This document shows, piece after piece, positions 30,532-60,716 of a stretch of DNA of 64,000 nucleotides; within the stretch, counting starts at the first letter, position 1; the number at the start of each line of letters is the position of its first letter. The notes below the pieces were generated by a model. The model saw nothing but the letters and a program-made list of their open reading frames with translations. It was not told the origin of the DNA and did no database searches. The translations under genes and the position numbers were made by a program. Source of the DNA: Candidatus Omnitrophota bacterium (GTDB lineage Bacteria; Omnitrophota; Gorgyraeia; Duberdicusellales; 4484-171); assembly GCA_043815445.1 (NCBI GenBank), contig JBDRIY010000054.1, positions 527 through 64,526 on the forward strand, in the 5' to 3' direction.

Positions 30532-30813
30532 TTATTTAATCGCCTTTATTTCTTTTAGGTCTTTGAGGAATTTTTTCATTTCTTTTTCAGCTTCTTCTTC
30601 AGTAGTATCAAACTTTTCTAAAACTATTTTTTTGATTGCGGCAAGGCTTTTTTTGCCATCAATTAGCTTCCAAACCTCTGACGCTACCTTATTCAAGGTA
30701 TAAATACAATTTATCTCATCCGAGGTTTTATAAATAGGCATTAAAATAGTTTCATCATCAATTACCCTTGTAACCATATCCGGATTTTTGCGTAAAACTC
30801 CCGCTTTTGCCAT
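30532..30813 (-). CDS. PqqD-family protein (RiPP recognition element-like peptide chaperone)
   Basis: 93 aa. ETILMPIYKTSDEINCIYTLNKVASEVWKLIDGKKSLAAIKKIVLEKFDTTEEEAEKEMKKFLKDLKEIKAI fits the PqqD pattern (LN..a..IW.l.DG...l.eI...l...y ... FL..L). Confidence 0.75.
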   Translation of the reverse strand: MAKAGVLRKNPDMVTRVIDDETILMPIYKTSDEINCIYTLNKVASEVWKLIDGKKSLAAIKKIVLEKFDTTEEEAEKEMKKFLKDLKEIKAIK

Positions 30814-30888
30814 AATTCTACCCTCCTTTTCTAAGCTATCTCTTTGTCATTATCCGGCTTGACCGGATAATCCAGAACCTTTCAATCC

Positions 30889-31857
30889 CTATACTCTCCT
30901 AACAAAATCAATCACTTTTTTATCATTCACAAACCCCATACTATAACAAGGCACCGCGCTGATTAAATCCTGGCAAAAAGATACAATATTTTCTAAACAC
31001 TGCTTATCCCAAAAAGTAGGAAAAAGCGCGGGATATAGTTTGTTAAAGGCTTCCTTTTTAGAAATTTTCTCCACAATATTTTTTTTGGCGTGGCGAATAA
31101 AGAATAATTTTTTCAAAGGCGCTGAATCTATTCGCGAAGTAAGGTAATCGTTAAAATCACCATGCCAGGGAGAACCGTGAATGGAAAAGCCTTTTCTATC
31201 CTTACGCACAATAATACGATCATCATTCAAAACCATTGCCTTTGTATGTTTATGCCAAATTCGGGCTGTAGTGCTTTTCCCAGCTCCGGATTCACCGGCA
31301 AAAACCAAGCCTTGCCCGTTTAAATCCTTTATCCCAATAGCATGGGTAAAAATCCCTTCCCGCCTTTGAGCAAAATAATTTATTAACAATACCTGTAAAA
31401 AATCATAGATAATATCTCCGGTGCTCCAAACAAATCCTTTGTTTTTTTTAAATAACTCCCGATCTTCTTCTCCAAACATATCTTTTTCTTTTTTAGGCAG
31501 AATAAAAGCTTCTATTTTATCAAAACTTTTGTTTACAAACATTATCTGCTTTTTATCTTCAAGAGGGCTTTTATAAATATAACTATCACCTTTTTTAAGC
31601 AAACGCCAGTTTTCGCTTCCATCCTGAAAATGATAAGTAACAAACAGAGGTTTTGCCTTAAAAACTTGAGGTAATTTATCCACTATTTCTATATCAATTA
31701 AGATATCAGTTTTTTTCTTTCCCTGATAAAAAAAATTATCAAACCTTTCTTCTATTTGAAGCTCTTTCTCTATCTTTGTGAATTGCTTAAGAGGAAACCG
31801 GCTTTGCATTTGAATAACTACGTCCGCAATTTTTAATTTAATTGTTGCTTTTTTCAT
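30889..31857 (-). CDS. HPr kinase/phosphorylase-related P-loop kinase (HprK C-terminal-domain-like)
   Basis: GLVFAGESGAGKSTTARIW aligns to the HprK Walker A (GvLitGdSGvGKSetAL). Size and context resemble the HprK-like kinases found in peptide-modification clusters. Confidence 0.65.
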   Translation of the reverse strand: MKKATIKLKIADVVIQMQSRFPLKQFTKIEKELQIEERFDNFFYQGKKKTDILIDIEIVDKLPQVFKAKPLFVTYHFQDGSENWRLLKKGDSYIYKSPLEDKKQIMFVNKSFDKIEAFILPKKEKDMFGEEDRELFKKNKGFVWSTGDIIYDFLQVLLINYFAQRREGIFTHAIGIKDLNGQGLVFAGESGAGKSTTARIWHKHTKAMVLNDDRIIVRKDRKGFSIHGSPWHGDFNDYLTSRIDSAPLKKLFFIRHAKKNIVEKISKKEAFNKLYPALFPTFWDKQCLENIVSFCQDLISAVPCYSMGFVNDKKVIDFVRRV

Positions 31858-31907
31858 TTAATCTCCTAATTTTTTTAATAACGGCCGCAAAATATTGCGG
31901 CTCTACA

Positions 31908-33074
31908 CTATATGAATTCTTTAATACGCTTTTGCGCTGTTTTTGCCAACTCACAAAAATATTCTACTTCCTTATGCATATCTCCTGTCTCAAGATAAGC
32001 TTTGCCCGGGCACAATAAACAAAAATCAATCATATCACAGTTATAACACTTAGAATCCGTCTTGATCTTTACTCCGGCTATATTTTGAAATACAGAAAAC
32101 ATTTTTCTTATATCTTCCGGCTCTGCCTTTAATAAATCTATCCCTGGCTCGCGAATACAAGAACACATAAACATCTTCCCGTAAGGATCAATATTAACCC
32201 CGTCTAAACTGCCTGCCGCGCACCTAAAAAGCCTTTTATCACTAATAGTATTTTTCGTCATTCCTACGCCACTTTCATCATTCCCATATTTTTTGTCATT
32301 CCCGCGTTCCCTTTTGTCATTGCCCGGCTTGACCGGGCAATCCAGAAACATATTAATTCCGCCTTCGTCTTCTTCCACGCTTTGGACTTCAAACAACTTA
32401 TCTAATTCTACAATCTGTTCAGGCTTAAGCCGCAGACTGCACGGCGTGGTATCGCCGTCTAACCCCGCCTGCAATAATAAACCAGGCCTGAATTCCAAAC
32501 CTCTACTCTCCAAAAATTCTTTTATTTTCGGCAATTCTTCTAAATTCTGCTGAGTTGCCATAGTCTTTACTTTTAAGGGCAGATTTCTTTTTAAAATCAT
32601 ATCTAAACCTGCCATTGCCTTTTTATATGAACCTTTAACCCTAGTTATATTTTCATAAGTATTCTTGGTTACACCGTTAATAGTTATTTCAATGGCAAAA
32701 GGAGGCCTTTTTGCTAAATAGTCCGCGGCTTGTTCCGTTAAAGAATATCCTGTAGTAAATATAGTTATCAAAAAACCTTTATCTTTAGCATACTCATATA
32801 TTTCTAAAAAATCGTTTCTTTCTAAAGGGTCTCCGCCGGTAAAACAAAGCCAGATAACACCTAATTTATATATTTTATCAATGATAAGCTTAATCTGTTC
32901 AGTATTTAACTCTTTTTTAATATAAGAAGGCTTATTGTAACAATCACAATAACAATGCCCACAATGCAGGCCGCACTTAAAAGTAAGCTCAAACTGACAA
33001 ACATTCTGCTTACTAATCCGCCAGTTTTTTTTATGAGTATTTAAACTAAAATCCTTATATTGAATTGTCTTCAC
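31908..33074 (-). CDS. radical SAM / SPASM-domain peptide-modifying enzyme (paralog B)
   Basis: CGLHCGHCYC (CxxxCxxC), GGDPL, C-terminal Cys-rich SPASM block (CAAGS...CSCI...CYNC...CLLCPG). Contains a low-complexity insertion. Confidence 0.85.
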   Translation of the reverse strand: MKTIQYKDFSLNTHKKNWRISKQNVCQFELTFKCGLHCGHCYCDCYNKPSYIKKELNTEQIKLIIDKIYKLGVIWLCFTGGDPLERNDFLEIYEYAKDKGFLITIFTTGYSLTEQAADYLAKRPPFAIEITINGVTKNTYENITRVKGSYKKAMAGLDMILKRNLPLKVKTMATQQNLEELPKIKEFLESRGLEFRPGLLLQAGLDGDTTPCSLRLKPEQIVELDKLFEVQSVEEDEGGINMFLDCPVKPGNDKRERGNDKKYGNDESGVGMTKNTISDKRLFRCAAGSLDGVNIDPYGKMFMCSCIREPGIDLLKAEPEDIRKMFSVFQNIAGVKIKTDSKCYNCDMIDFCLLCPGKAYLETGDMHKEVEYFCELAKTAQKRIKEFI

Positions 33075-33075
33075 T

Positions 33076-34179
33076 TTAAACCTTTAATGATAGTGACTCT
33101 GCTTTACGTTTACTTTCCGAATCACAACTTGTAAAATCTTTATTATTAAGCCAAGCCTTAGCAGGGCACCACTTGCAATAATCTTCTAATTCACACTCCG
33201 AACATTGATAATTGTCATCAGGCTTTATATCTTTTACCGCCTTTTTCATCTTATCCCAGGCGCTTCTTAAACCCATTTTCAATATATTATATTTTAAATA
33301 ATCAATCATCAAACACATTTTTAATTCACCAAAAGGCGTAATAGCCGCCTGAGCCTGCCCCACCCCGCATTTAAAAAGACTATTCACGCTGCAAGCCGCA
33401 GGCTGCAGGCTACAGGCTTCTCCCCTTTCTCTTCCCTCTCTCTTGCTCCCTTCCTCATTGCTAACTGCTAATTGATAATTGCTAATTGATAATTCCCCCT
33501 TCTCCGTTCCCCCTTCATCCTTCGTTAACACCCCTCTATACTCAAACGGCTCCCTTGAACCGTCTAATCGCGGCAGAAGCATATCATCTAAACGGTGCAA
33601 CGCGCCTAATGAAGCGGCAAAATCTTGTATCTTTTTTATTTCCTTTTCATTTTCTTTTAAAACACAAGTTTTAAATCCCAAGCTAACCTCATTTTTACGT
33701 AAAAGTTCTATTGCCTTAAATACTTTATCCCTTGAACCGTTTGCTCCGCTAATAAGCTCAAACGCTTTTTTACTCATCCCGGGAATTGTAATATCCACTT
33801 TATTCGGACGCAGGCTCCCGAGTTGAGCCGCGATTTTCGCGTTAATCAAAGAACCATTGGTATAAATAATAATCTCGAAACCGGATTTCTTAGCATAACT
33901 AAGAATTTTTATTATATCCTTCCTCATAAAGGGCTCGCCTCCAGTAAACCCTAAATAAAAACAGCCTAAGTCTTTCAATTGGTCTAAAATAATACATATC
34001 TCTTTTGTCTTAAGCTCTTTTTTCTTATTTTTGTAACTCTGCGGAACATAACAATGCCGGCATTTAAAATTACACTCATAAGTCAACTCAAACATCACCC
34101 GTAAAGGAAAAAGTTTCTCGCGCGCCTGTTTATGCAATTTCGCGTAAAATTCCTGATTAATGTCGGTTTTTATCGCCAT
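33076..34179 (-). CDS. radical SAM / SPASM-domain peptide-modifying enzyme (paralog A)
   Basis: CNFKCRHCY, GGEPF, SPASM Cys block (CGVGQ...CLMI...CSEC...CKWCPA). Ends 2 nt before the paralog B start. Low-complexity insertion at the equivalent position. Confidence 0.85.
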   Translation of the reverse strand: MAIKTDINQEFYAKLHKQAREKLFPLRVMFELTYECNFKCRHCYVPQSYKNKKKELKTKEICIILDQLKDLGCFYLGFTGGEPFMRKDIIKILSYAKKSGFEIIIYTNGSLINAKIAAQLGSLRPNKVDITIPGMSKKAFELISGANGSRDKVFKAIELLRKNEVSLGFKTCVLKENEKEIKKIQDFAASLGALHRLDDMLLPRLDGSREPFEYRGVLTKDEGGTEKGELSISNYQLAVSNEEGSKREGRERGEACSLQPAACSVNSLFKCGVGQAQAAITPFGELKMCLMIDYLKYNILKMGLRSAWDKMKKAVKDIKPDDNYQCSECELEDYCKWCPAKAWLNNKDFTSCDSESKRKAESLSLKV

Positions 34180-34308
34180 TATTTTCCTAAATCATTTACG
34201 TCTGAAGCGATTATCTAAAATTAGCTTCCCTGCCCTAAAAATTCATACAACAGAACCACAAAGAATAAGTTTTAAAAAATGGCGCAATCAAGCATTTTAT
34301 GCCTATTG

Positions 34309-35358
34309 CTAATTTTTTGCCCCAATAGCCAGCGCCCAATAAAAATACGCTTCCGGAATAACAGCCTGAAGCCTCTCAAGAATTTTATATTCCTTCGGAA
34401 ATGTCATTCCCTGAGTTAAGGATAAATCTATATTTTTTATAAGCCGCGGGTTTTCTTTATTTTTAAACATACTCGCCATATATACAATTTTAGCATAAGC
34501 AATTTTTATATCTTGTTTGTTTACCTTTTTCCCTAAATGATTGGTAACTTTAGCCAGGCCATCATCAATAAGCGCAATCTCCGAAAATGAATTATCAGCG
34601 CCTTTAAGTAATGCTTGTGAATATTTAAACGCGATATCTATAACATCATTGAGAACCTCATCCATAGAATAAGCTGTCCCGCGAAAATCATTCTCTTGTT
34701 GTACAGTATTCAGAAAACTCTGCTTCATGTCGTTGATGTCGCTTGCGATATTAAAAAGCTCATTTAAATCAATAATTTGCTTTACGCACTCCATTGACCG
34801 TTTTTCATTTAAAGGAATACCTATAGTCTTAGGCGAAATTGCTGTCATTTTATCGCCTAATAAGCCTTCCGGAGTTGGGATACTGACAACTGCATTTGAA
34901 TTGAAGAATACCAGCGGAAATTTTGATATGTTTTTCTCAACTAGTTTCTTATATGGATACTTTGTAAAAACAACGTCTAAAAGTATATACTGCTGTTCTT
35001 TTGAGAAATGTGATGTAAACTGAAATTTATAATGCGCTTTTGGTATCTTACTGCCGCGAATATTCTCTTTTACGATATTGAACCACTGTGATGTTGATAT
35101 CATCTTGACAAGCGCGCCTTTCAACCCTGCCCGCTCTTCCAGCGGCAAAAGAATATCAATATCTATAGATAGCCGGGCTGGCGGAAAAATATGTAAAAGG
35201 ATAGATGTCCCGCCCTTAAATACCAGCTTCGAATAAACGCCAAGTAATTCATCCAATAAATTAAAGGCATAAACTGTCTTTTCGAAAATTCCACGGTCGC
35301 TAAACCCAAGCTCTTTTCTTAAAGATTCCAACTGATTAATATCTATCTGTTTCTTCAT
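34309..35358 (-). CDS. nucleotidyltransferase AbiEii/AbiGii-family toxin (type IV TA / abortive infection)
   Basis: FKGGTSILLHIFPPARLSIDIDILL (GGT ... R.S.DID motifs). Confidence 0.75.
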   Translation of the reverse strand: MKKQIDINQLESLRKELGFSDRGIFEKTVYAFNLLDELLGVYSKLVFKGGTSILLHIFPPARLSIDIDILLPLEERAGLKGALVKMISTSQWFNIVKENIRGSKIPKAHYKFQFTSHFSKEQQYILLDVVFTKYPYKKLVEKNISKFPLVFFNSNAVVSIPTPEGLLGDKMTAISPKTIGIPLNEKRSMECVKQIIDLNELFNIASDINDMKQSFLNTVQQENDFRGTAYSMDEVLNDVIDIAFKYSQALLKGADNSFSEIALIDDGLAKVTNHLGKKVNKQDIKIAYAKIVYMASMFKNKENPRLIKNIDLSLTQGMTFPKEYKILERLQAVIPEAYFYWALAIGAKN

Positions 35359-35382
35359 AAAAACTACTTTTCTCTTGGTTAT

Positions 35383-36114
35383 CTATGGCAGTAAATTATA
35401 CTTATTGCCATAGATACCATTGTTAAGTCCAAGTTTATCAATGAGTTGTGAAATTAGCTTTCGGAGGTTTCTCCGTCTAACAGCATAATCAAAAACCGCA
35501 GCAAAATTTATCCTGTAAAGATCGTAAATAAATCCCCATAGCTCCCAATAATCAGCTTCCGGCATTATTCTGTATTTATCTTTAATAACATAAAGATCTA
35601 CCATCATCTTTTCAAGATCCGGCTTATGCCCATTTCTTGGTGACCGGTTAATAAGGGAACGCGCAATAATTGGATTTTTTGTAATGTCAAATCCCGCGGG
35701 AGAATCCTTACTTTTAGTTTCCACGAACACATAGCGGTAAAACTGAGATATTCTATCAGTTACAGGATGAACGCCGTCATATTCAACCTCTACAAAAGTG
35801 ATGTGGTGTGTTTGCTGATGATGATAATAAGGCTGAAAATATAATGTATTCCAAATAAGAAAATCAAGATCAGGAAATTCCTTTTTGATAAGCTGACGAA
35901 TTTTAATAACACGGTTATTTTTCGGACAAATAAATTCCTTTGAAACAGAAGTATATAGACCGCGCCCAGCAGAAAAAACAATTTTTTCGTCTTTAAACGA
36001 CTGTAGATAATTAAGTAACGTCTGCCTTCCAAGCCTCGTATCCTTAACAATCTGCGCTAAAGAAAAATAACGATGATTTCTTATGTATTCTCTAATTAAT
36101 TCTTTTTTATCCAA
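35383..36114 (-). CDS. AbiEi-like antitoxin / transcriptional regulator paired with AbiEii
   Basis: Co-oriented with and immediately upstream of the AbiEii gene. Winged-helix-like N-terminus IREYIRNHRYFSLAQIVKDTRLGRQTLLNYL. Confidence 0.5.
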   Translation of the reverse strand: MDKKELIREYIRNHRYFSLAQIVKDTRLGRQTLLNYLQSFKDEKIVFSAGRGLYTSVSKEFICPKNNRVIKIRQLIKKEFPDLDFLIWNTLYFQPYYHHQQTHHITFVEVEYDGVHPVTDRISQFYRYVFVETKSKDSPAGFDITKNPIIARSLINRSPRNGHKPDLEKMMVDLYVIKDKYRIMPEADYWELWGFIYDLYRINFAAVFDYAVRRRNLRKLISQLIDKLGLNNGIYGNKYNLLP

Positions 36115-36315
36115 AGCTCACCTCGATTTTGATAATTCAAGCTTCTTTGCTCTACACTGGCTATTATAACATTGGGAATTTGAAAAATGAAGAGGCTATT
36201 ACAATGGCCCCCGAAGCCTGCCCTGATTATTATATCGGGATTCCACAAGGATAATGCTAAAGGATAAACAGATATATTTACGGCAAATAACTGGGTCCTC
36301 TTTCCTCTGGTTTGC

Positions 36316-36434
36316 TTGATTAATATCAGTTTTTATCGCCATTGCCTTCCTAAATCATTCGCGCCTGAAGCGATTATCTAAAATTAGCTTCCCTACCTTA
36401 AGAATGTCTACCACAGAGTCACAAAGACACAAAG
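36316..36434. repeat. duplicated copy of the upstream region + first 8 codons of rSAM paralog A (original at 34154..34272)
   Basis: ~110 nt near-identical. Includes atggcgataaaaactgatattaat (MAIKTDIN), with no downstream continuation. Confidence 0.6.
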
Positions 36435-36460
36435 TAGAAACAAACCCCTGTATCTGTCCG

Positions 36461-36895
36461 TTATAGAACCATTCTCTTTACGCCGTTTTTCATTAAATCA
36501 GTATTAAAATTCAAAATTAACCCTATGCTTAATCCTGTTAATTTTAAATAGGTTAGCAATTGCGCTTGATGAACAGGTAAAATATTTTCTACACATTTCA
36601 TTTCAACTATCACTATATTTTCTACAATTAAATCAATCCTGTATTTTTCCGCTAACTTTATGTTTTTGTAAACGATAGGGATCTCTTTTTGCCTTAGATA
36701 CTTAACTTTATTTAATTCAAATTCCTTACATAAACATTCCTCATAGATAGATTCTAATAATCCATGGCCTAAGTGTTTATGAACTTCTATAGCACATTTT
36801 ATTATTTTTTCCGATATTCTATTCCTTAACTCTAATTTATCCATTGTATTCCTCTGTGCCTCCGTGACTCTGTGGTTTAAAGTTTTCATACCCAC
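36461..36895 (-). CDS. GxxExxY-family protein (PD-(D/E)XK-like)
   Basis: HGLLESIYEECL (G-x-x-E-x-x-Y) motif. 144 aa. Confidence 0.65.
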   Translation of the reverse strand: MGMKTLNHRVTEAQRNTMDKLELRNRISEKIIKCAIEVHKHLGHGLLESIYEECLCKEFELNKVKYLRQKEIPIVYKNIKLAEKYRIDLIVENIVIVEMKCVENILPVHQAQLLTYLKLTGLSIGLILNFNTDLMKNGVKRMVL

Positions 36896-36922
36896 TTATG
36901 TATTTTCGCGTAAAATTCCTGA

Positions 36923-38068
36923 TTAATGCCGGTTTTCATCGCCATTTTTCTGTTTATTTTCTAACTCTTCATTTAACGCCCGCGCTAATTCGCAATAATA
37001 AGGAACTGGGGCTTCTTCATCGCCTGTTTCTAAATAGGCTCTGGCCGGGCAGTGATAACAAAGCGCGCGTAACTTACAATCCCTGCATTTTGAGTCAGTT
37101 TTAAATTTCTCGCTTAATAATTTAGGAAATGCTTTATAAAACCCTTCCGCGAACGATACTTTCTTTAAATCCACGCTAAACTTATCAGAAAAAGCGCAAA
37201 ACTTAAGCCGGCCATAAGGATTAATAAAAAACTGGCTCATCCAGGCATTACAGCGGTAAAGAAATTGCCTGTCTCTCTCTAAATCAGGAAAATCATTGTC
37301 TAATCCTTTTTGATACTGCTTCCAAATATCAGAATCCTGCTTTTTCGCCTCTATCAATTCTTGGGCAGAAAGCCTATACTGACAAGGAGTTTTATCTCCA
37401 TTAAACCGGGGGTATATCATTGGATCATATTTAAAATAGTATTTATTCTTTGCCGGTTTTCCCAGAAGTTCTTCAGTAAATTCTTTTATCTTACCGACTT
37501 CATTTTTATTCTGCTTAAGACAATTTGTTTTTAGTATTAAGGGGAGTTTTTTCTTTGCTAATAATTTAACAGTTCTCATCACCTTAGAAAAAGAGCCCTG
37601 AACCTGAGTAATCGCTTCATAAGTTCTTTGGGTTATGCCATTTAAGGTAATTTCTATAGAACAAGGCGGGGATTTAACCAGATAAGAAATGATTTCTTTT
37701 GTAAATTTTTGGCCATTGGTAAAAACAGTTATAATAAATCCTTTTTCTTTAGCATAAGCGTATATCTCTAAAAAATCCTTTCTGATTAAAGGGTCTCCGC
37801 CGGTAAGAGCCAGCCAAAGGCATCCTTGCTTGTGAATTTCATCAAGAATTGTCTTCCATTGCTTTGCGGTTAATTCTTCACCCCTATTTTCGCTCCCTTT
37901 GCAGTAGCAGTGGCCGCAGTTCAAATTGCAGCGATAGGTAAGCTCAATATGCGCGCTCCAAGGATAATGTTCTTTCTTGTTTTGCAGTTTATTATAAAAA
38001 CGGCCGGAGTTTTGAACTTTCATATAAAAAGTTTTTCCTTTATAGACAAACTTAATCTGCGCGCCCAA
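36923..38068 (-). CDS. radical SAM / SPASM-domain peptide-modifying enzyme (paralog C), directly downstream of precursor peptide 1
   Basis: CNLNCGHCYC, GGDPL, SPASM Cys block (CNAW...CAFS...CRDC...CYHCPA). No low-complexity insertion. Confidence 0.85.
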   Translation of the reverse strand: MGAQIKFVYKGKTFYMKVQNSGRFYNKLQNKKEHYPWSAHIELTYRCNLNCGHCYCKGSENRGEELTAKQWKTILDEIHKQGCLWLALTGGDPLIRKDFLEIYAYAKEKGFIITVFTNGQKFTKEIISYLVKSPPCSIEITLNGITQRTYEAITQVQGSFSKVMRTVKLLAKKKLPLILKTNCLKQNKNEVGKIKEFTEELLGKPAKNKYYFKYDPMIYPRFNGDKTPCQYRLSAQELIEAKKQDSDIWKQYQKGLDNDFPDLERDRQFLYRCNAWMSQFFINPYGRLKFCAFSDKFSVDLKKVSFAEGFYKAFPKLLSEKFKTDSKCRDCKLRALCYHCPARAYLETGDEEAPVPYYCELARALNEELENKQKNGDENRH

Positions 38069-38116
38069 GAGATTTTACTATTTTCTACTTTAATCGCCCC
38101 TATTTTTAAAAAGAGT

Positions 38117-38326
38117 TTAAGAATTAGCGGATGTCAGCGACCAGTTATTACTGTTCCCTCTATGGCCCTTCCCACTGTAACATATATCGGCCCGTAGAGG
38201 CCAGTTAGTCTCACCCCTAAGCGGGTAGATTTTACCAAGATCCCAACAATCGCACATTAGCACCGCCTGTTCCGCATTAAGTTTTACCCGTGTAATTTCC
38301 GGCTTAAATTTTGGTTTTCTAAGCAT
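38117..38326 (-). CDS. candidate RiPP precursor peptide 1 (69 aa from Met17 of the ORF-track entry)
   Basis: MLRKPKFKPEITRVKLNAEQAVLMCDCWD leader shared with two other peptides. Core has 1 further Cys and ends ...TSANS. AGGAGG lies 7 nt upstream of the ATG. Confidence 0.6.
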   Translation of the reverse strand: MLRKPKFKPEITRVKLNAEQAVLMCDCWDLGKIYPLRGETNWPLRADICYSGKGHRGNSNNWSLTSANS

Positions 38327-38366
38327 TCCCGTGACCTCCTTTCGTTTTTTATTTTTTATAATAAAA

Positions 38367-39965
38367 CTACTCAATTATAAATATCTGAATTGCTTCAAGG
38401 CCGTTAGGGTAATAAATCGTTTTGATTGGGACTTTATGAGAATATTCTTTTTTAAAAGAAACATATTTATAAATAAACAAATCACCCCAATAATCCTGAG
38501 AATGAGATTCCGGCGCCCAAAGAACATAAATTCTTTTTTTTTGTTCTTTTTCGCCTTGAACTAAACGAAAATCATAATATTTATCTATTTTGCCTTTTTC
38601 CCAAAGGTAATAATTAAGGTAAAAATCCGTTGTCATTCTGCTATCTTGAATTATAACATAATCTTTAATGTTATCCAATTGGCTTAAATATTCCCCGGCC
38701 TCTTGACAGCCATAACTATTATGCCGGCACTGGCCTAAATCCAGAGGCGCGGCGTAACAAAACTTTGTCCATTGCACTGCCTCCGTAATTATTAAACTAA
38801 AGCAAAATGTACCCGTAATAATCAAAATGAACGCTTTTGTAAAGCCTTGTTTTTGCAAGCCATAGTTAAATATCTGCGCAATGAACTTAGCAATTAAAAT
38901 TATTATCGGCGGCAAAATAATAAGAGCGTATCTTGGCTGAAAAAAATTCACTCCGCCTAAAACTCCTATCAACCCTAAAATCAGCCAGGTTAAAAGAATT
39001 TTATCCGCTGTTTTCCTTTGAAAAAAAGAAGTAATACAAGAGGTGAATAAAAGAAAAAATGCTATTGGGTGAGCTAATAATGGCGCTTTCAAAGCCTTGC
39101 CGTAAAGCAAAGATGAGCTTTTAAAGTTAAAAAACAACTCTTTAAAGGTAAATAACGTATTATTTTTAATATTTACCCAAATATTAGCAAATAAATTACC
39201 TTTAAAAATGTTTTCCTGATACGCGCGGTAGAAACTTTGCCCGAATTCATCTCCCCTTATCATACTTTTATAGATAAAAGGCAAGCTGAATAAACCCGCG
39301 ATTAATAATAAAATAACAGTTATCTTGGAATTTAAAAGATATCTCGCATCTTTTTTAGCCCATATTAACGATATAAAAAATATAGGGGCAAAAAGGGCCG
39401 CGGACTCATAACTTACTAAAGATTTTTGCATAAAAAAACAAGATAATATAAACCATAGCCCAATCCCTATTTTTTCTTTATTCTCAATTGCTTTAAAAGC
39501 CTTGAACAAACTTAAAAAAATTAAACAGCCGAAAAAAGGAACCCAAATTACCCTGCCCATAATCCGGCTATGAATTAAATGCCAGGGAAGAAAACATAGC
39601 AAAAGTGAAGATATTAGAGCTGTTTTACGGCCATACATACACTTTGCTAATATATACAGCAATACAACTGTCCCCGCCCCTATGATTATCGGCTCAAAGC
39701 GGCAATGAATCATAAAATTGTTTAGGGTAAATACTTCCGGCGAAGATATACGTGAAATCAAAAAAAAACGCAGAGAATAGGGGATAAAAAAAATTATAGG
39801 TATACCTATGATTTCTTTAATTAATTCCGGCCAGATCAGTAAAATCCTTGCCCAATTAGCTTCATCATGATTTACGGGCAACATCTTTATATTATAAAAT
39901 CTTATAATAAACGCGCCGATGAAAATAACAATAATTAATAAAATATCCGGCAGTAATCGCTTCAT
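38367..39965 (-). CDS. GT-C-fold membrane glycosyltransferase (PMT/ArnT-like), paralog 1, 40 nt upstream of peptide 1
   Basis: Multi-TM. First-loop acidic motif NHDEANWAR. PMT_2-like block LLCFLPWHLIHSRIMGRVIWVPFF. ~150 aa C-terminal soluble domain. Start set at MKRLLPDILL by homology to the paralog (ORF-track start 40010). Confidence 0.55.
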   Translation of the reverse strand: MKRLLPDILLIIVIFIGAFIIRFYNIKMLPVNHDEANWARILLIWPELIKEIIGIPIIFFIPYSLRFFLISRISSPEVFTLNNFMIHCRFEPIIIGAGTVVLLYILAKCMYGRKTALISSLLLCFLPWHLIHSRIMGRVIWVPFFGCLIFLSLFKAFKAIENKEKIGIGLWFILSCFFMQKSLVSYESAALFAPIFFISLIWAKKDARYLLNSKITVILLLIAGLFSLPFIYKSMIRGDEFGQSFYRAYQENIFKGNLFANIWVNIKNNTLFTFKELFFNFKSSSLLYGKALKAPLLAHPIAFFLLFTSCITSFFQRKTADKILLTWLILGLIGVLGGVNFFQPRYALIILPPIIILIAKFIAQIFNYGLQKQGFTKAFILIITGTFCFSLIITEAVQWTKFCYAAPLDLGQCRHNSYGCQEAGEYLSQLDNIKDYVIIQDSRMTTDFYLNYYLWEKGKIDKYYDFRLVQGEKEQKKRIYVLWAPESHSQDYWGDLFIYKYVSFKKEYSHKVPIKTIYYPNGLEAIQIFIIE

Positions 39966-40140
39966 TTTTTTATGAAACTTTAACTTTCCCATTTTTCGCG
40001 CAGTCCTCAAAGGGTGCTACATTCTTCAATTATCCAAAATTATAAATTCCTGTTTTTACATAATGGCAGCTATAGGGAAAAATGCCTGTGGACGCCTGTC
40101 AACCGATAAACTATAATTAATGTAGATTACAAAGATTAAA

Positions 40141-41547
40141 CTATTCAATGCTATTCTTATTTCTTCTAAACTTAACTCCGCGAATAATCTTATCTGCCTC
40201 TTTATTAAATAACTTTATTTTTCCTGCTTTTTTGTAACATTTCATAAGAGCAAGGCTAACGCGATTATCATTCAAATTCATTTCTTTTGCTTTTATCAAT
40301 GCTTCTATAGCTTTTTTATAATGCCTTAAAGCCTCATAACAAAGGCCTAAAATTAGATAGGCTTTGCCCCCTTTGTAATTTAATTTGAAAACCCTTCTTA
40401 TATTTTTAATAGCTTCCTTATGTTTATGTAACTTCAAATATGCCTCACCAAGTTTTAAATAAGCTAAAATTTTATTCCCATCATCACAAGCGCTCTTTAA
40501 TTCATTTTTATATATTCTTATGGCTTTTCTTTCATCGCCTTTATCTCTTTTAATCGAATTATTCCTTTTTATTAAGACTGCTTTCTTAAATAATGATTCA
40601 CAATAACCGCAGGTATCGCATTTTAAATTACAATTAAGCATTTTCTTAAAAAAATAATTTTTAACCAGAATATCATAATCTATATATTCAAAATAAGAAA
40701 GGCCCGGACAGTCCAGTATTTCCAAAAGATTACCTCTAAAATGTTTACTAATATAAGCCTTGAGGCATAATTCAATTCTCTTTGTAGAAAAAACTCTCGT
40801 TGATAACTTATAATGATTTACAAATTTATCATAACAATCTAATGCGTCTGGCGGTATAAAAGGTACACGGAATACTTTTAAGGAGTTTTTTAAATATACT
40901 TCAATGCAAAATTTATCAGGAAAAACACCTTCTATGATTTTTCCTCGAGATTTTTCTCTATGTGATAAATAATTATAATGATTAACCCTATAAGGACAGT
41001 TGCCCAAACAACCCTCATTAAGCATTACTCGTATTTGAAGGCCGGTTCTCTTCTTTATCTCTTTTATTAAATTAATACTACGATTTATATCCCTATCAAT
41101 GGTTAATACATCTACGCCTAAATCTTTAAGATATAAGGCATGCTCAACGGTTTTCATATAACAGTTAACGGACGACTCTATTATTATACCGCTAATTTCC
41201 TTTTTGATTTTACTAATATAAATAGGGTTCGTAACTACCACAGAGCTAAGCCCTTTATCTCTCAATCTTTTTACATAATCCAATATATTATTAAAAAAAG
41301 TTCCGCTTAATCCAATAACGCCTTCACAGGTCGCGTTTAATAAAAGCTGTGGCCTGATATTTAAAGTATTACATTTTCTTATAATTTTCGGAATCTGTCT
41401 TGTATATGACTTTGGCTCCTGTTGATCCCTTCCAGAACCCAAATATAGCTGCGGTATAGGAAAATAAAAAGCTTCTATATTATCCTTATATGCGCCAATA
41501 AGGTCTAACATTTTAATATCATAGTTATATCCTATAGAGAATTTCAT
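40141..41547 (-). CDS. peptidase-U32-family protein (collagenase-like TIM barrel, Cys cluster) with C-terminal TPR repeats
   Basis: IEAFYFPIPQLYLGSGR ... VVVTNPIYI ... SVNCYM ... IRVMLNEGCLGNCPYRVNHYNYLS follows the U32 block order. CDTCGYCE, then TPR-like helices. Confidence 0.55.
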   Translation of the reverse strand: MKFSIGYNYDIKMLDLIGAYKDNIEAFYFPIPQLYLGSGRDQQEPKSYTRQIPKIIRKCNTLNIRPQLLLNATCEGVIGLSGTFFNNILDYVKRLRDKGLSSVVVTNPIYISKIKKEISGIIIESSVNCYMKTVEHALYLKDLGVDVLTIDRDINRSINLIKEIKKRTGLQIRVMLNEGCLGNCPYRVNHYNYLSHREKSRGKIIEGVFPDKFCIEVYLKNSLKVFRVPFIPPDALDCYDKFVNHYKLSTRVFSTKRIELCLKAYISKHFRGNLLEILDCPGLSYFEYIDYDILVKNYFFKKMLNCNLKCDTCGYCESLFKKAVLIKRNNSIKRDKGDERKAIRIYKNELKSACDDGNKILAYLKLGEAYLKLHKHKEAIKNIRRVFKLNYKGGKAYLILGLCYEALRHYKKAIEALIKAKEMNLNDNRVSLALMKCYKKAGKIKLFNKEADKIIRGVKFRRNKNSIE

Positions 41548-41565
41548 TATCTTAAAATTAATAAA

Positions 41566-41790
41566 TTATGAATTTGAACATCTAGCAGTGCAGTTCTCTT
41601 GGGTAGGTCCAGGCACAGATCTGCAGTATCCGCTTCCCTTTGACGTACAAATCTTCTCCATCCCATCGACAGTACGGAGAGCACCGCCGTCAAGCCAGCC
41701 ATCATCGTAACAGTCACAACTTAATACTGCTTGTTCAATATTAAGTTTTACTTTTGTTATTTCCAGCTTAAATTTTAGTTTTTTAGGCAT
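41566..41790 (-). CDS. candidate RiPP precursor peptide 2
   Basis: MPKKLKFKLEITKVKLNIEQAVLSCDCYD leader. Core has 4 further Cys and ends CSNS. AGGAGGTG RBS. Confidence 0.6.
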   Translation of the reverse strand: MPKKLKFKLEITKVKLNIEQAVLSCDCYDDGWLDGGALRTVDGMEKICTSKGSGYCRSVPGPTQENCTARCSNS

Positions 41791-42048
41791 TTCTCACCTC
41801 CTTGTAATAGAATCACACTACTTTGTTAAAGACTCAAAACATATCCCTTTAAACCTTAAATTCTATAAAACTCAAAATGAATTCCCTTGAGGTAAATATG
41901 ATTTAAAATTTAGATCTAAGCTTAATTTTGCTAAAAAACTTGTTGATGAAATATAACATAAGGTGTCAGCTTTTCTTATCAGCACAATTAGATTAGATAT
42001 TCTAAATCCTAAAAAAATAAATCTCCAAATCGATAAATACAAAAGAGT

Positions 42049-42255
42049 TTAAGATGTGTGACAAGATGAATCGCACTGCGTCCTCCTCGTCATCGTACGA
42101 GTAGCCGGATCGCACACCATTAAATTTGGCAGTCTCGCACGATGTGAACTTCCCTCCCTGCCACTCCATTGGTAACAACCGCAATATAACACTGCCTGCT
42201 CCACTTTGAGTTTTATCTGTATAATTTCCGGCTTAAATTTTAGCTTTCTAAACAC
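42049..42255 (-). CDS. candidate RiPP precursor peptide 3
   Basis: MFRKLKFKPEIIQIKLKVEQAVLYCGCYQW leader. Core has 3 further Cys and ends SCHTS. GGGAGGT RBS. Confidence 0.6.
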   Translation of the reverse strand: MFRKLKFKPEIIQIKLKVEQAVLYCGCYQWSGREGSSHRARLPNLMVCDPATRTMTRRTQCDSSCHTS

Positions 42256-42289
42256 TTCTTACCTCCCTTTTTAAACCTCTACTATTTAT

Positions 42290-43894
42290 TTATCTAAGTA
42301 TAAATATCTGAATTGCCTCAAGCCTATTGGGGTAATAAATAGTTTTGATTGGCCTTTCATCTGGATATTCTTTTTTAAAAAAATTAAACTGCCGAGCAAA
42401 TAAACCGCCCCAATAATCCTGATGATGAGATTCCGGGGCCCAAAGAACATAAATTCTTTTTTTTTGTTCTTTTTCGCCTTGAACTAAACGAAAATAATAA
42501 TATTTATCTATTTTTCCTTTTTCCCAAAGGTAATAATTAAGGTAAAAATCCGTTGTCATTCTGCTATCTTGAATTATAACATAATCTTTAATATCATCCA
42601 ACTGGCTTAAATACTCCGCGGCCTGTTGACAGCCATAACTGTTATGCCGGCACTGATTTAAATCCAAAGACGCGGCATAACAAAATCTTGTCCATTGCGT
42701 CATCTCAGTAACGATTAAACTAAAACAAAGCGCGCCCGCGGTAATCAGGATAAACGCTCTCCTAATTCCTTGTTTTTGGAAACTATAACTAAACATTTGA
42801 GAAATAAATTTAGCGACAATAATTACCATCGGCGGTAAAATAATAAGGACGTATCTTGGTTGGAAAAAACTCACTCCGCTTAGAACTCCCGCAAACCCTA
42901 AAATCAGCCAAATTAAAAGAAGCTTATCCGCTGTTTTCCTTTGGAAAAAAGAAATAATACAAGATACAGTTAGAAGAAAAAATACTATCGGGTGCGCCAG
43001 TAAAGGAGCTTTTAATGCCCGGCCGTAAAGCAAAGATGAACTTTTAAAGTTAAAGAATAAATCTTTGAAGGCAAAGGCAGTATTATTTGTAATATTTGCC
43101 CAAATGTTAGCGAATAGGTTGCTTGTAAAGATATTCACCTGATACCCGCGGTAAAAGTCTCTCCAAAATTTATCTCCTATTGTTATAATTTTATAAATAA
43201 AAGGCAGGATAAATAAAGAAACAATTAGCAATAATGCAATGCCTGTTTTGGGGCTTAAAAAGCTTTTTCTTTCTCCCATAATCCAAAATAATGACACAAA
43301 AAGTATCGGAATAAAAATAATCGCGGATTCATAGCTTGTCAAAGACCCTTGCAGAGAAAAACAAGATAGCAAAAACCATAATCCGGCCCATATTTTTTCT
43401 TTATTCTTGATTGCCTGCAAGGCTTTAAATAAACTTAAAAAAATCAAACAGCCAAAAAAGGGAATCCAGATCACCCTGCCCATAGTCCTGCTATGAATTA
43501 AATGCCAAGGAAGAAAGCATAATAAAAGTGAAGATATAAGGGCTGTTGGACGGCCATACATATATCTTGCCAATATATATAACAATACAACTGTGGCCGC
43601 CCCTATGATTATTGGTTCAAAACGGCAATGGACTATAAAGTTATTTAGGGTAAATGTTTCCGGCACAGATACGCGCAGAGCTAAAAAAACCCGTAAAAAA
43701 TAAGGTAGAAAGGGAAAGGAAATTACAGGAATACCTATAATTTCCTTAATAAATTCCGGCCTTTTCAGCAAAAACCTTGCCCAATTCGCTTCATCATGAT
43801 TTATAGGTAGTATTTCTATATTGTAAAATCTTATAATAAACGCGCCGATAAAAATACTAGTAATTAATAAAATATCCGGCAGCGATCGCTTCAT
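42290..43894 (-). CDS. GT-C-fold membrane glycosyltransferase (PMT/ArnT-like), paralog 2, 34 nt upstream of peptide 3
   Basis: ~75-80% identical to paralog 1 by eye. Same NHDEANWAR and PWHLIHSR blocks. Confidence 0.55.
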   Translation of the reverse strand: MKRSLPDILLITSIFIGAFIIRFYNIEILPINHDEANWARFLLKRPEFIKEIIGIPVISFPFLPYFLRVFLALRVSVPETFTLNNFIVHCRFEPIIIGAATVVLLYILARYMYGRPTALISSLLLCFLPWHLIHSRTMGRVIWIPFFGCLIFLSLFKALQAIKNKEKIWAGLWFLLSCFSLQGSLTSYESAIIFIPILFVSLFWIMGERKSFLSPKTGIALLLIVSLFILPFIYKIITIGDKFWRDFYRGYQVNIFTSNLFANIWANITNNTAFAFKDLFFNFKSSSLLYGRALKAPLLAHPIVFFLLTVSCIISFFQRKTADKLLLIWLILGFAGVLSGVSFFQPRYVLIILPPMVIIVAKFISQMFSYSFQKQGIRRAFILITAGALCFSLIVTEMTQWTRFCYAASLDLNQCRHNSYGCQQAAEYLSQLDDIKDYVIIQDSRMTTDFYLNYYLWEKGKIDKYYYFRLVQGEKEQKKRIYVLWAPESHHQDYWGGLFARQFNFFKKEYPDERPIKTIYYPNRLEAIQIFILR

Positions 43895-43984
43895 TTTGAA
43901 AAGTTTTTCTCTTTTTTGCTAGTTAAAACACGTTAGGTATATATCCTGGACTTTTTCATTGACCTTATTTACATTCTTATGATA

Positions 43985-44158
43985 TAATCTCTTTATGCCA
44001 AATATATTATGGACTGTTTCTTCAAAGTTTGGTAAATCTATTAGGTTAACTTCGAAAGTTTGGTTTGAAAAAATTCTTTTAGAGCATCCTGAATTCTCTA
44101 TTTTACCTGAATATTCAGATGAATTACGAAAAACCAGGGAAGTAAAATGGCGCAAATA
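43985..44158 (+). CDS. small ORF (57 aa), possible toxin partner of the DUF2283-like gene
   Basis: Found by hand, not in the ORF track. MPNILWTVSSKFGKSIRLTSKVWFEKILLEHPEF... Overlaps the downstream ATG by 11 nt (AAATGGCGCAAATAA). Confidence 0.3.
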
Positions 44159-44362
44159 AATATTGTAAAAAGAACTAAGCTGAATTATGACTCGGAAAGC
44201 GATGTGCTTTATATTAATTTTGATCAGCCTCAATCTGCTGATGACAGCGATATCACTGACGAAGGAGTAATTATTCGCCTCAGGGAAAATAAAATTGTCG
44301 GGCTGACTATTCTTAATGCCGCTAAGGCGCTGGTAAGTCATCCTAAACATAAACACTCCTAA
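44147..44362 (+). CDS. DUF2283-like small protein (putative antitoxin-type partner)
   Basis: 71 aa. KLNYDSESDVLYINFDQP...EGVIIRLRENKIVGLTILNA matches the DUF2283 pattern (Y D xxx D xLYI). Confidence 0.5.
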   Translation: MAQINIVKRTKLNYDSESDVLYINFDQPQSADDSDITDEGVIIRLRENKIVGLTILNAAKALVSHPKHKHS

Positions 44363-55281: not shown

Positions 55282-55282
55282 T

Positions 55283-60272: not shown

Positions 60273-60300
60273 TGTTCTCTCCTACTCCTGCACTCCAAGT

Positions 60301-60714: not shown

Positions 60715-60716
60715 TT

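Follow-up and report, generated by a model that had tools for sequence, protein, structure and literature searches.

A candidate new RiPP-like biosynthetic island with three Cys-rich peptides in Candidatus Omnitrophota

Introduction

Among the described gene sets that come closest to the one reported here, SynChlorMet (SCM; ScmC, ScmD, ScmE, and ScmF in NCBIfam/TIGRFAMs) joins a PqqD-like protein and an HprK-like protein, "ScmC," to paralogous radical SAM (rSAM)/SPASM enzymes. This cassette has itself been defined in silico only, and to our knowledge no precursor has been identified for it. Glycosylation of ribosomally made and posttranslationally modified peptides (RiPPs) has a precedent in the glycocins, in which it is, as far as we know, carried out by cytoplasmic GT2 enzymes such as SunS rather than by GT-C enzymes; we know of no description of a RiPP-dedicated membrane GT-C, nor of a U32 enzyme with a known peptide substrate. 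In lasso peptide pathways, HprK homologues add a phosphate to the precursor at its C-terminal Ser and are largely indifferent to the remaining sequence, and a nucleotidyltransferase, for which fusions to leader proteases are sometimes seen, attaches a hexose to the Ser phosphate (PMC6993621, PMC8498205). Most U32 families use four Cys to bind a [4Fe-4S] cluster, and UbiU/UbiV catalyze hydroxylation without O2 (PMC6747719).

Here, we analyze a locus in a 64,000-nucleotide stretch of Candidatus Omnitrophota DNA (the window, meaning this stretch at its full length). We read it as a biosynthetic island for ribosomally made and posttranslationally modified peptides, belonging to a widespread and uncharacterized family centered in Candidatus Omnitrophota, and give this reading a probability of roughly 0.7. 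About a dozen enzymes probably serve the cross-linking, phosphorylation, trimming, and glycosylation of three small Cys-rich peptides, a chemistry that we infer from gene families and folds, conserved co-occurrence, and sequence invariants of the peptide family, each of which is demonstrated below.

Results

A check of the sequence and open reading frames (ORFs) of the window found every gene listed in the original prediction close to or at its predicted position, always on the minus strand; unless marked otherwise, the genes given with coordinates in this section lie on that strand. The three leader-sharing, Cys-rich precursor-like peptides are among them. Peptide 1 (42049-42255) has a GTG start, 68 aa, and 5 Cys and ends in CHTS; peptide 2 (41566-41790; 74 aa, 6 Cys) ends in CSNS and is identical to the NCBI hypothetical protein ABIH08_03815 from a Candidatus Omnitrophota MAG; and peptide 3 (38117-38326; 69 aa, 3 Cys) ends in SANS. 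The N-terminal 24 residues are common to all three, with leader HMM E values of 4e-17, 1.6e-19, and 1.3e-20, respectively, and a Shine-Dalgarno-like site precedes each gene (GGGAGGT for peptide 1 and AAGGAGGT for peptide 3). The ORF of peptide 3 extends to 38374, and the Met with AGGAGG before it is that at 38326.

These peptides belong to a family of 872 representatives with the leader consensus KxKFKPEITRVKLNPEQAVL, in which mean pairwise identity is 78.5% in the leader versus 10.7% in the core. Pfam and NCBIfam searches returned no model for the precursor family and no match of the peptides to any known family, structural protein families included. The core, which follows the leader, begins with a C-x-C-aromatic motif, beyond which the window cores contain one to four more Cys (the family mode is four Cys in total). 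Core length after the QAVL motif ranges from 20 to 82 residues across the family and from 45 to 51 in the window. Cores are thus hypervariable in both sequence and length, and what they retain is limited to the pattern of Cys and the C-terminal residue: the latter is Ser or Thr in 156/156 family representatives, and in 103 of the 108 locus peptides versus 11% of the long ORFs in the same loci. All three window peptides end in Ser, and in all three the leader lacks a Pro whose conservation is 99% in the rest of the family. Several different precursors are found per genome, with up to eight in tandem.

The three predicted rSAM/SPASM enzymes were recovered in an HMM scan as A (36923-38068), B (33076-34179), and C (31908-33074), with PF04055 E values of 6e-23, 7e-24, and 3e-18 and orthogroups spread over 41, 35, and 35 related loci, respectively. 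In each, CX3CX2C and, toward the C terminus, a SPASM-type pattern of seven Cys can be read directly from the sequence; the Pfam SPASM model itself reaches only an E value of 0.008, for enzyme A, the nearest solved structure to which is the thioether-forming sactisynthase SkfB (E 8.7e-20). The PqqD-like peptide-recognition protein (RRE; 30532-30813) was likewise detected by HMM scan (PF05402, E 8e-14) and has sub-threshold matches to PqqD, ScmD, and lasso PqqD models. The predicted kinase corresponds to an HprK/PEPCK-fold P-loop protein at 30889-31857, a putative kinase of the peptide C-terminal Ser. Its direct sequence matches are weak (ScmC, E 7e-8; Hpr_kinase_C, E 0.009), precomputed Pfam data place it in PF27840 "ScmC," and its likeness to PEPCK is as strong as that to HprK; within its family the P-loop and an NDDR motif are invariant, and in locus L073 an rSAM-ScmC fusion is present. 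No rSAM enzyme reaches an NCBIfam cut-off, and since the PqqD and kinase-like proteins also score below the curated cut-offs, known chemistry is not transferable to any of them. The ABC exporter predicted just downstream was located at 28609-30375, with a transmembrane domain and an ATPase (PF00664, PF00005); it matches HlyB/MsbA-type models, all under their cut-offs, and a Pfam/NCBIfam domain scan did not find a C39 peptidase domain in it.

The original list was incomplete, lacking an arginase-like/TPR gene, a nucleotidyltransferase-peptidase fusion, a third GT-C glycosyltransferase, and two inserted cassettes. The fusion gene (46707-48292) joins an NTP_transf_5 nucleotidyltransferase (PF14907, E 5.6e-40) to an S24/S26-type Ser/His peptidase, a putative leader peptidase (signal peptidase I models, E 1e-8), and is broken by a frameshift at an A7 run (46935-46941). 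An unbroken fusion of 612 aa is encoded in L068, and the peptidases stand alone in L070, L073, and L074. At 44359-45843, a peptide-arginase-like (PF12640/UPF0489) domain (37.1 bits versus a GA of 27) is followed by TPR repeats. It matches NF052474 (FlmR/OhkR peptide arginase) with an E value of 7e-13, has OspR as its best PDB match (8brp, E 0.019), and contains EDH, DAHMD, and DIDTD, which are all three published metal-binding motifs (PMC12703449). Orthologues occur in 22 related loci, and core Arg content is 8.5% in loci with the arginase gene versus 4.1% in those without (p = 4e-5, in a statistic that ignores phylogenetic relatedness and truncated contigs). The predicted U32 protein with TPR repeats is a divergent U32-family TIM barrel at 40141-41547, detected by HMM scan with TPR matches and a PF01136 score of 22.2 bits versus a GA of 22.4; a profile of its homologues matches the U32 structure 5d88 (E 8.5e-8). 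Its invariant residues C180, C214, C310, and C313 form a putative [4Fe-4S] site, and orthologues lie within the cassettes of L045 and L070.

Two paralogous PMT/ArnT-like glycosyltransferases, as predicted, complete the central region. GT-C1 (42290-43894; PMT_2/GT39-like) scores 28.3 bits against PF13231 (GA 26.1) and GT-C2 (38367-39992 or 38367-40010), annotated by NCBI as a 541-aa "glycosyltransferase family 39 protein" (P0028), scores 23.7 bits, under the GA, with 75% identity between the two. An AF2 model of GT-C1 (pLDDT 89.5) confirms a GT-C fold at the level of structure prediction, with Foldseek matches to STT3, AglB, ArnT, and PMT (E 1e-7 to 1e-5); in its family, of the two acidic residues just past the first transmembrane helix, E35 is invariant and D34 nearly so. 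Both genes end 35 to 40 nt upstream of peptide genes, and in L068 a GT-C gene is again followed, after a gap of ~40 nt, by a family peptide. The proposed pairing of one GT-C with each precursor goes back to a recent duplication of a GT-C-plus-peptide module, to which the 75% identity points, and does not hold as a general rule. GT-Cs of this type are present in just 4 of the 62 non-redundant loci. The third GT-C (PMT_2; 48934-50457; PF13231, E 1.3e-14) is of a different type, with 25% identity to GT-C1 across 174 residues. In L011 and L068 its orthologues directly adjoin the NTP_transf_5 gene, and in L073 and L074 this position is taken by PMT_2 genes.

Glycan genes are abundant on either side of the cassette (GT4, WecA-like, Wzy_C, GT2, GT4, and the third PMT_2), so that some of the glycosyltransferases could have an envelope function instead. 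Downstream are a GT4 glycosyltransferase (27468-28592), a WecA/MraY-type phosphoglycosyl transferase (26447-27493), and, on the plus strand, a Wzy_C O-antigen-ligase-like protein (25259-26497), which could tentatively be assigned a part in supplying or transferring a lipid-linked glycan. GT4 genes are also found downstream of the cassette in L014, L037, and L038, WecA-like genes in L014 and L038, and Wzy_C genes near it in L009, L030, L039, and L070.

In dozens of loci independent of one another, homologous peptides are surrounded by the same gene set, more than expected by chance, and 30 loci, mostly from Omnitrophota, are complete in the sense that all three rSAM orthogroups are present. Among these 30, PqqD and the HprK-fold ScmC-family protein are each found in 27, the ABC exporter in 20 (where its orthologue ends the cassette), the arginase-TPR protein in 14, the S26-like peptidase in 12, and NTP_transf_5 in 9. 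The conserved core thus comprises three rSAM/SPASM enzymes, PqqD, the ScmC-family protein, and the precursor, with the exporter, arginase-like/TPR protein, S26-like peptidase, and nucleotidyltransferase as frequent partners. All members of the predicted set exist, but GT-C and U32 emerge as recurrent accessories. The set is kept around homologous peptides in many genomes, so the lack of joint conservation that would have counted against the prediction is not seen.

The island was expected to span 13 kb on a single strand; the strand is as proposed, but the island covers at least 28.6 to 50.5 kb of the window, reaching upstream at least to 50457, and possibly extends into the glycan genes on either side. 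Two insertions outside the pathway interrupt it: a GxxExxY PD-(D/E)XK protein gene (36461-36895; TIGR04256, E 3e-44) and a DUF6577 plus AbiEii toxin-antitoxin-like pair (34309-36114; PF20217, E 4e-44; PF08843, E 1e-17), the latter not found in the related loci. Both are bordered by duplicated copies of the rSAM B 5' end. With its operon broken by two foreign cassettes and its peptidase domain frameshifted, the window copy may be partly impaired. A 222-aa ORF (45993-46661) with a weak MptE-like match (PF01973, E 9e-4, under cut-off) has no homologue among the related loci, and its membership is uncertain; a 145-aa ORF (43919-44356) without a Pfam/NCBIfam match or a homologue among those loci may not be a gene.

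Discussion

We propose a pathway in which the free-standing PqqD protein would bind the leader and offer the core to the three distinct rSAM/SPASM enzymes, which may cross-link this Cys-bearing core or modify it by other radical chemistry. The C-terminal Ser could then be phosphorylated by the HprK-fold ScmC-family kinase and its phosphate further decorated by the NTP_transf_5 domain, while core Arg would be converted to ornithine by the arginase-like/TPR enzyme and a further hydroxylation, possibly oxygen independent, might be added by the U32/TPR Fe-S enzyme. The S26-like peptidase domain would cut off the leader and the ABC transporter would export the product. In the decorated subtype seen here, GT-C may finally glycosylate the product at the periplasmic face with polyprenyl-phosphate-linked sugars.

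One competing explanation concerns the glycosylation step, namely that the peptide-maturation cassette is real but that GT-C and the neighboring glycosyltransferases form an envelope glycan locus (LPS, O-antigen, or EPS-like) acting on lipids or polysaccharide, their adjacency being a by-product of a variable cell-surface region. In its favor are the plentiful flanking glycan genes, the rarity of the GT-C1/GT-C2 type, and the fact that lipid A or glycans are common substrates of PMT_2/ArnT-type enzymes; in addition, none of the three sampled homologues at ≤40% identity lies in a cassette, all being in unrelated contexts. However, the four sampled homologues at ≥44% identity (44 to 58%) are all inside cassettes, which come from different samples; within the operon, peptide and U32 genes alternate with the two GT-C genes; the GT-C-then-peptide order is repeated in L068; and a second type of GT-C is found time and again beside an NTP_transf_5 gene. 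We regard this explanation as unlikely, though it deserves to be taken seriously.

Two further alternatives would reassign the peptides themselves. Precursors of a redox cofactor or small fixed product (PQQ, mycofactocin-like) would account for an rSAM/SPASM, PqqD, and glycosyltransferase set that mirrors cofactor pathways, for sub-threshold matches (E 1e-23 to 1e-29) of the rSAM enzymes to the mycofactocin maturase and PqqE, for the match of the PqqD protein to the PQQ chaperone model and of a nearby GT2, below threshold, to MftF, and for an invariant C-terminal residue reminiscent of mycofactocin's fixed C-terminal residues. A fixed product is nevertheless difficult to reconcile with hypervariable cores, several different precursors per genome, and a dedicated exporter at the end of most cassettes, and the model cut-offs of neither cofactor pathway are reached, which leaves this option quite improbable. 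Still less credible is a variant lasso peptide pathway, even though PqqD (B1), HprK kinase, nucleotidyltransferase, ABC exporter, and an asparagine synthase homologue (62145-63947) are all in the window and such enzyme classes occur together in phosphorylated/glycosylated lasso clusters (PMC6993621, PMC8498205). The asparagine synthase is 14 kb distant and retains a strong glutamine-amidotransferase domain (E 3e-42), and the related loci hold no conserved counterpart of it (best matches, 25 to 35 bits); moreover, a transglutaminase-type B2 protease is absent, the cores, far longer than those of lasso peptides, lack a conserved ring-forming Asp/Glu position, and it is three rSAM/SPASM enzymes that constantly accompany the peptides.

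The evidence therefore supports the reading of the locus as a RiPP-like system and a candidate new one. A literature search and the Pfam and NCBIfam libraries yielded no description of the peptide system, although the databases partly cover its enzymes through PF27840 and sub-threshold SynChlorMet matches, which tempers the originally claimed novelty. The window PqqD and rSAM proteins match ScmD, ScmE, and ScmF, but scores fall far under the NCBIfam cut-offs (ScmC, 32 versus 125; ScmD, 33 versus 100; ScmE, ≤91 versus 400), and on the rSAM enzymes these models are outscored by other rSAM families. The island also has three rSAM orthogroups versus two in SynChlorMet and adds an identified precursor family along with an arginase-like protein, a peptidase, a nucleotidyltransferase, a U32 protein, and GT-C enzymes.

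For the C-terminal Ser, the best functional analogy is with lasso peptides that are phosphorylated or phosphoglycosylated (paeninodin, pseudomycoidin), which share an HprK-family kinase, a Ser-ending precursor, a PqqD-type protein, a nucleotidyltransferase, and an ABC exporter (PMC6993621, PMC8498205); the island, however, has three rSAM/SPASM enzymes in place of the lasso cyclase and B2 protease, and its long, Cys-rich cores differ. Sactipeptide and ranthipeptide systems (SkfB, subtilosin AlbA, PapB, SCIFF) likewise use rSAM/SPASM maturases and an RRE on Cys-containing cores, but here three distinct maturases are conserved together with a free-standing PqqD, no family cut-off is reached, and the leader and core patterns fit no known precursor model. 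The arginase-like protein shares its domain family and metal-binding motifs with the peptide arginases OspR, FlmR, and OhkR (PF12640), yet carries C-terminal TPR repeats, scores 48.6 versus a cut-off of 350 on the FlmR/OhkR model, and accompanies a precursor type different from those in PMC12703449. Similarly, the U32 protein has the TIM barrel and four invariant Cys of the Fe-S hydroxylases UbiU/UbiV, RlhA, and TrhP (PMC6747719), with a Cys spacing that departs from the common CX6CX15CX3/4C, a TPR fusion, and a peptide-cassette setting. Finally, the island GT-C enzymes share with the protein glycosylation enzymes PglB/AglB/STT3 and PMT, and with ArnT, both the fold and an acidic motif in the first external loop, and a RiPP-dedicated membrane GT-C, if that is what they are, would work after export.

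A precursor family with a fixed leader and a hypervariable core

The original prediction placed a RiPP-like island at 30532-43894, and its three leader-sharing precursor-like peptides are borne out here by small open reading frames (ORFs) on the minus strand at 42049-42255 (peptide 1), 41566-41790 (peptide 2) and 38117-38326 (peptide 3), each with a Shine-Dalgarno-like site and all with a common 24-residue N terminus. A profile built from these peptides matched 872 representatives (E ≤ 1e-3, library clustered at 50% identity), all of them short proteins. Across 155 representatives, the 26-residue leader block KxKFKPEITRVKLNPEQAVLxCxC has a mean pairwise identity of 78.5%, compared with 10.7%, near random, for the 30 residues that follow it. 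Nevertheless, the cores keep certain features: a C-x-C with an aromatic residue or His directly after it is retained in 150 of the 155, the modal Cys count per peptide is four, and the C-terminal residue is Ser in 150 and Thr in 6 of 156 representatives. When loci were drawn from one genome per species, 103/108 distinct peptides ended in Ser or Thr, compared with 11% of long ORFs. Judged from sequence, the near-constant leader and variable core, together with the conserved CxC-aromatic motif, Cys number and C-terminal Ser/Thr, are the signature of leader-guided, diversifying RiPP precursors.

Two other identities were considered for these peptides. Membership of a known structural protein family, raised in the original prediction as a possible objection, found no counterpart in the databases, since no Pfam or NCBIfam model matched the three window peptides or ten of their relatives, and such an identity fits poorly with a constant leader followed by a variable core. 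The reading as cofactor precursors was rejected on two grounds, the hypervariable cores and the several precursors encoded per genome.

A second peptide subtype has CC in place of CxC and shorter cores, and its genes often stand in tandem, as many as eight in a row. The three window peptides depart from the leader's NPEQAVL motif at its Pro, which is 99% conserved among the 155 representatives: they have Val, Ile and Ala there. In L073, a related locus from another genome, two peptides at 6294-6765 carry a different leader (…W.KPKLIVLVR..PEE…) and are still Ser terminated; they adjoin genes for PqqD, an S26-like peptidase, two GT-C enzymes and a 651-aa fusion of radical SAM and ScmC domains (2367-4322), which suggests that the family is part of a wider superfamily with more than one type of leader.

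Three radical SAM enzymes in a recurrent cassette

All three paralogous radical SAM (rSAM)/SPASM enzymes that had been predicted, rSAM A (36923-38068), rSAM B (33076-34179) and rSAM C (31908-33074), match PF04055 and, on reading the sequences, contain a CX3CX2C motif and a C-terminal 7-Cys SPASM-type pattern, which confirms the assignment. The Pfam SPASM model matches rSAM A weakly (E 0.008), and none of the three reaches a curated NCBIfam cut-off. The nearest solved structure to rSAM A is the thioether-forming SkfB. The predicted PqqD-like recognition element (30532-30813; PF05402, E 8e-14) and ABC exporter (28609-30375), the latter without a C39 peptidase domain, were also confirmed. Considering the genes alone, we observe the hallmarks of a sactipeptide/ranthipeptide-type system: the rSAM motif with SPASM Cys residues, a PqqD-type RRE and, beside the enzymes, a precursor with a leader and a variable Cys-bearing core. 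PqqD would present the leader, and the three SPASM enzymes would modify that core.

The co-occurrence of the gene set around related peptides, proposed as a check, was confirmed by comparison of 61 loci recovered from species-representative genomes. These are mostly Omnitrophota, with a few labelled Elusimicrobia, Saganbacteria, WOR-3, NPL-UPA2 or Planctomycetales. By best-hit assignment with the window proteins, the rSAM enzymes form three separate orthogroups, and all three are present in 30 non-redundant loci, many of them on incomplete contigs. Within this set, PqqD and the kinase-like protein are each encoded in 27/30 loci, the ABC exporter in 20/30, an arginase-like/TPR protein in 14/30, an S26-like peptidase in 12/30 and NTP_transf_5 in 9/30. 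The usual gene order is arginase-TPR, PqqD, peptide, rSAM A, rSAM B, kinase, rSAM C and ABC. In addition, about ten loci encode rSAM enzymes of the B12-binding kind. The island is real and its RiPP-like reading is supported; its boundaries are wider than predicted (minus strand, at least 28.6-50.5 kb), and the division into core and accessory genes has been corrected.

A candidate tailoring module for the C-terminal Ser

The predicted HprK-like kinase (30889-31857) holds by fold and by its invariant GxSGxGKS and NDDR motifs, with a weak relationship at the sequence level: a PDB search by sequence only returned HprK at E 0.46, and the HprK/PEPCK fold was settled by fold comparison. PF27840 (ScmC) is the precomputed Pfam assignment of P0068, an NCBI protein identical to the window kinase-like protein, and PF27840.1 is assigned to nearly all of the listed homologues. 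These number 643 and are mostly 60-70% identical.

A gene not listed in the original prediction (46707-48292, minus strand) encodes a fusion of NTP_transf_5 with an S24/S26-type Ser/His peptidase. A frameshift in an A7 run at 46935-46941 cuts the S26-like peptidase off from the remainder of the protein; beyond the run, the downstream frame encodes a conserved ...LFYIRGDNS... box. The shift could reflect slippage-based switching, a pseudogene or a mistake in assembly. In other loci, the fusion is intact or the peptidase stands alone.

In the paeninodin and pseudomycoidin pathways, the precursor is phosphorylated at its C-terminal Ser by an HprK homologue that is largely indifferent to the remaining sequence, and a nucleotidyltransferase, at times fused to the leader protease, attaches a hexose to the phosphate (PMC6993621; PMC8498205). 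The island has matching ingredients, a kinase-like protein of HprK fold, a nucleotidyltransferase and peptides with an invariant C-terminal Ser, from which we infer the same kind of tailoring: the kinase-like protein would phosphorylate the C-terminal Ser, and the nucleotidyltransferase would then decorate the phosphate. Since the C-terminal Ser is invariant, the proposed role of the kinase is easily testable, and an orphan database family of ScmC/SynChlorMet type gains a concrete candidate substrate. The NTP_transf_5/S26-like fusion parallels the lasso fusion of transferase and leader protease, which suggests that the S26-like domain may remove the leader. PsmN is described as belonging to “a family of uncharacterized nucleotidyltransferases” (PMC6993621), and PF14907 bears the same family name. 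A CYTH (triphosphate tunnel) protein is encoded in five related cassettes (e.g., L068, 13163-13750, and L070, 12062-12655); none was found in the window. This gene is noteworthy because polyphosphorylation of the C-terminal Ser has been reported for pseudomycoidin.

Peptide arginase-like and U32-like proteins with TPR repeats

Also new to the island is a protein with a PF12640 peptide-arginase-like domain and TPR repeats (44359-45843, minus strand). The domain scores 37.1 bits against a gathering score of 27, and aligned to OspR it contains DAHMD, EDHDQAL and LDIDTDF, corresponding to all three published metal-binding motifs (PMC12703449); the protein is below the NCBIfam FlmR/OhkR cut-off (48.6 bits versus 350). 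Arg accounts for 8.5% of core residues in arginase-bearing loci and 4.1% in loci without the gene (Mann-Whitney p = 4e-5; per-locus p = 3.5e-4), with p-values that ignore phylogeny and with some loci on incomplete genomes. The window cores contain 3-6 Arg each, and the arginase-like enzyme would turn core Arg into ornithine.

The predicted U32 protein with TPR repeats (40141-41547) falls 0.2 bits short of the Pfam threshold (22.2 bits versus a GA of 22.4); the assignment is favoured by a homologue profile that matches the U32 structure 5d88 (E 8.5e-8) and by C180, C214, C310 and C313, which are invariant in 13 sequences and could bind a putative [4Fe-4S] cluster. PF01136 is the precomputed assignment of homologues in two related loci, L001 and L070. 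The spacing of the four Cys differs from the common U32 pattern CX6CX15CX3/4C (PMC6747719).

About a quarter of the cassette loci encode a U32 protein. The TPR-fused version found in the window is encoded in L045 and L070, and a short version (~350 aa, without TPR) with a conserved ~290-aa partner in ten loci. The short gene is present in L001 (within 11537-13446), L009, L014, L016, L030, L035, L037, L038 and L045, and the partner, which has no Pfam match, accompanies it in most of its loci. By analogy with UbiU/UbiV, the partner could be a second subunit. UbiU and UbiV hydroxylate without O2 (PMC6747719), and the U32 enzyme may do likewise. The TPR domains common to the arginase-like and U32 tailoring enzymes may dock the substrate.

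GT-C glycosyltransferases and other glycan genes

The two paralogous GT-C enzymes of the original prediction, GT-C1 (42290-43894) and GT-C2 (38367-39992), are 75% identical, and their nature is substantiated by Foldseek matches to the GT-C proteins STT3, AglB, ArnT and PMT and by an acidic pair directly after the first transmembrane helix (D34 near-invariant, E35 invariant). The PMT_2 model gives 28.3 bits for GT-C1, against a gathering score of 26.1, and a subthreshold 23.7 bits for GT-C2. Enzymes of this type are also encoded in the related loci L011, L039, L068 and L070. Homologues at 44-58% identity were inside cassettes in 4/4 sampled cases (L068, L070, L073 and L074) and those at 37-40% identity in 0/3. 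In L068, a CC-type family peptide begins 40 nt after the GT-C gene, the same arrangement that occurs twice in the window. A third GT-C (48934-50457) belongs to a second type that recurrently adjoins the NTP_transf_5 gene across loci, and GT4 and/or WecA-like genes, as well as Wzy_C genes, recur beside the cassettes. Once the peptide has been exported, its Ser/Thr/Gly-rich core could be glycosylated by the GT-C enzymes, with polyprenyl-phosphate sugars as putative donors.

Operon insertions and genomic surroundings

The window has a G+C content of about 35%, and its long ORFs are nearly all on the minus strand; three of its products (peptide 2, the kinase-like protein and GT-C1) have identical counterparts at NCBI from a Candidatus Omnitrophota MAG. 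The 5' end of rSAM B (MAIKTDINQEFYAKLH) is present in three copies within 34130-36949: the intact copy at 34179, a 9-codon fragment with 85 nt of upstream sequence at 36293-36427, and a 16-codon fragment, 91% identical, at 36896-36949, which overlaps the stop of rSAM A. Between these copies lie a GxxExxY PD-(D/E)XK gene and a DUF6577/AbiEii pair, two foreign cassettes between rSAM A and rSAM B that were overlooked previously, and it looks as if they were inserted successively at one site, each restoring the start of the rSAM B gene. GxxExxY genes inside other Omnitrophota cassettes (L034, 10049-10429; L038, 3866-4294, where it separates the short U32 gene from the 290-aa partner) suggest that this small nuclease-fold gene inserts repeatedly into such operons. 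An MptE-like ORF (45993-46661) and ORF145 (43919-44356) have no counterparts in the related loci.

Farther upstream, a same-strand block at 53926-62129 encodes four rSAM enzymes, of which two are B12-binding and one of the others has SPASM, together with a methyltransferase and an MftF-like GT2. The best match of one B12-binding enzyme is the RiPP C-methyltransferase TIGR03975, below threshold. No extra precursor was found in this block, which may therefore tailor the peptides of the island or make something else. Amid the glycan and rSAM genes, a toxin-antitoxin-like nucleotidyltransferase/HEPN pair is located on the plus strand (52841-53900). A ribonucleotide reductase large-subunit gene (15837-19430) contains an intein with a LAGLIDADG homing-endonuclease domain. 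Promoter and terminator scans gave counts no greater than in shuffled sequence.

Possible products and their significance

A precursor family and full gene set are now defined for a RiPP-like system common in Candidatus Omnitrophota, a group with no cultured representatives (PMC10066038). [quoted passage not shown] If true, it would provide the first GT-C-tailored RiPP and the first peptide substrate of a U32 enzyme. Three biochemical firsts are possible: a GT-C enzyme reserved for a ribosomal peptide, anoxic action of a U32 Fe-S enzyme on a peptide, and an alternative mode of substrate recruitment by tailoring enzymes fused to TPR repeats. The peptides might act as a diversifying surface or secreted factor in the host-dependent or predatory lifestyle proposed for Omnitrophota, and the fixed leader with a hypervariable core would suit peptide engineering if the enzymes are permissive.

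Comparison with known systems

The system is undescribed in the literature searched (SynChlorMet, ScmC, PF27840, the leader motif, U32/RiPP, Omnitrophota/RiPP and HprK/rSAM), and neither RiPPs nor biosynthetic gene clusters are mentioned in the Omnitrophota surveys examined. This large family is limited to uncultured lineages and may hold GT-C and U32 enzymes that act on a ribosomal peptide. Membership of the SynChlorMet cassette (TIGR04248-TIGR04251) was rejected, as scores fall below the NCBIfam equivalog cut-offs for ScmC (32.1/125), ScmD (32.7/100), ScmE (72.6-90.7/400) and ScmF (64-78/400). Phosphorylated lasso peptides share with the island an HprK-family kinase and a Ser-terminated precursor; however, their pathways use an Asn-synthase-type cyclase and a transglutaminase-type B2 protease, neither of which is present in the island cassette. 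A lasso peptide reading was rejected because neither a cyclase nor a B2 protease was found in the cassette or is conserved in related loci, and a distant AsnB gene with a GATase domain is not conserved. By analogy with these pathways, the island most likely operates like an rSAM/SPASM RiPP pathway joined to a tailoring module of the phosphorylated lasso peptide type.
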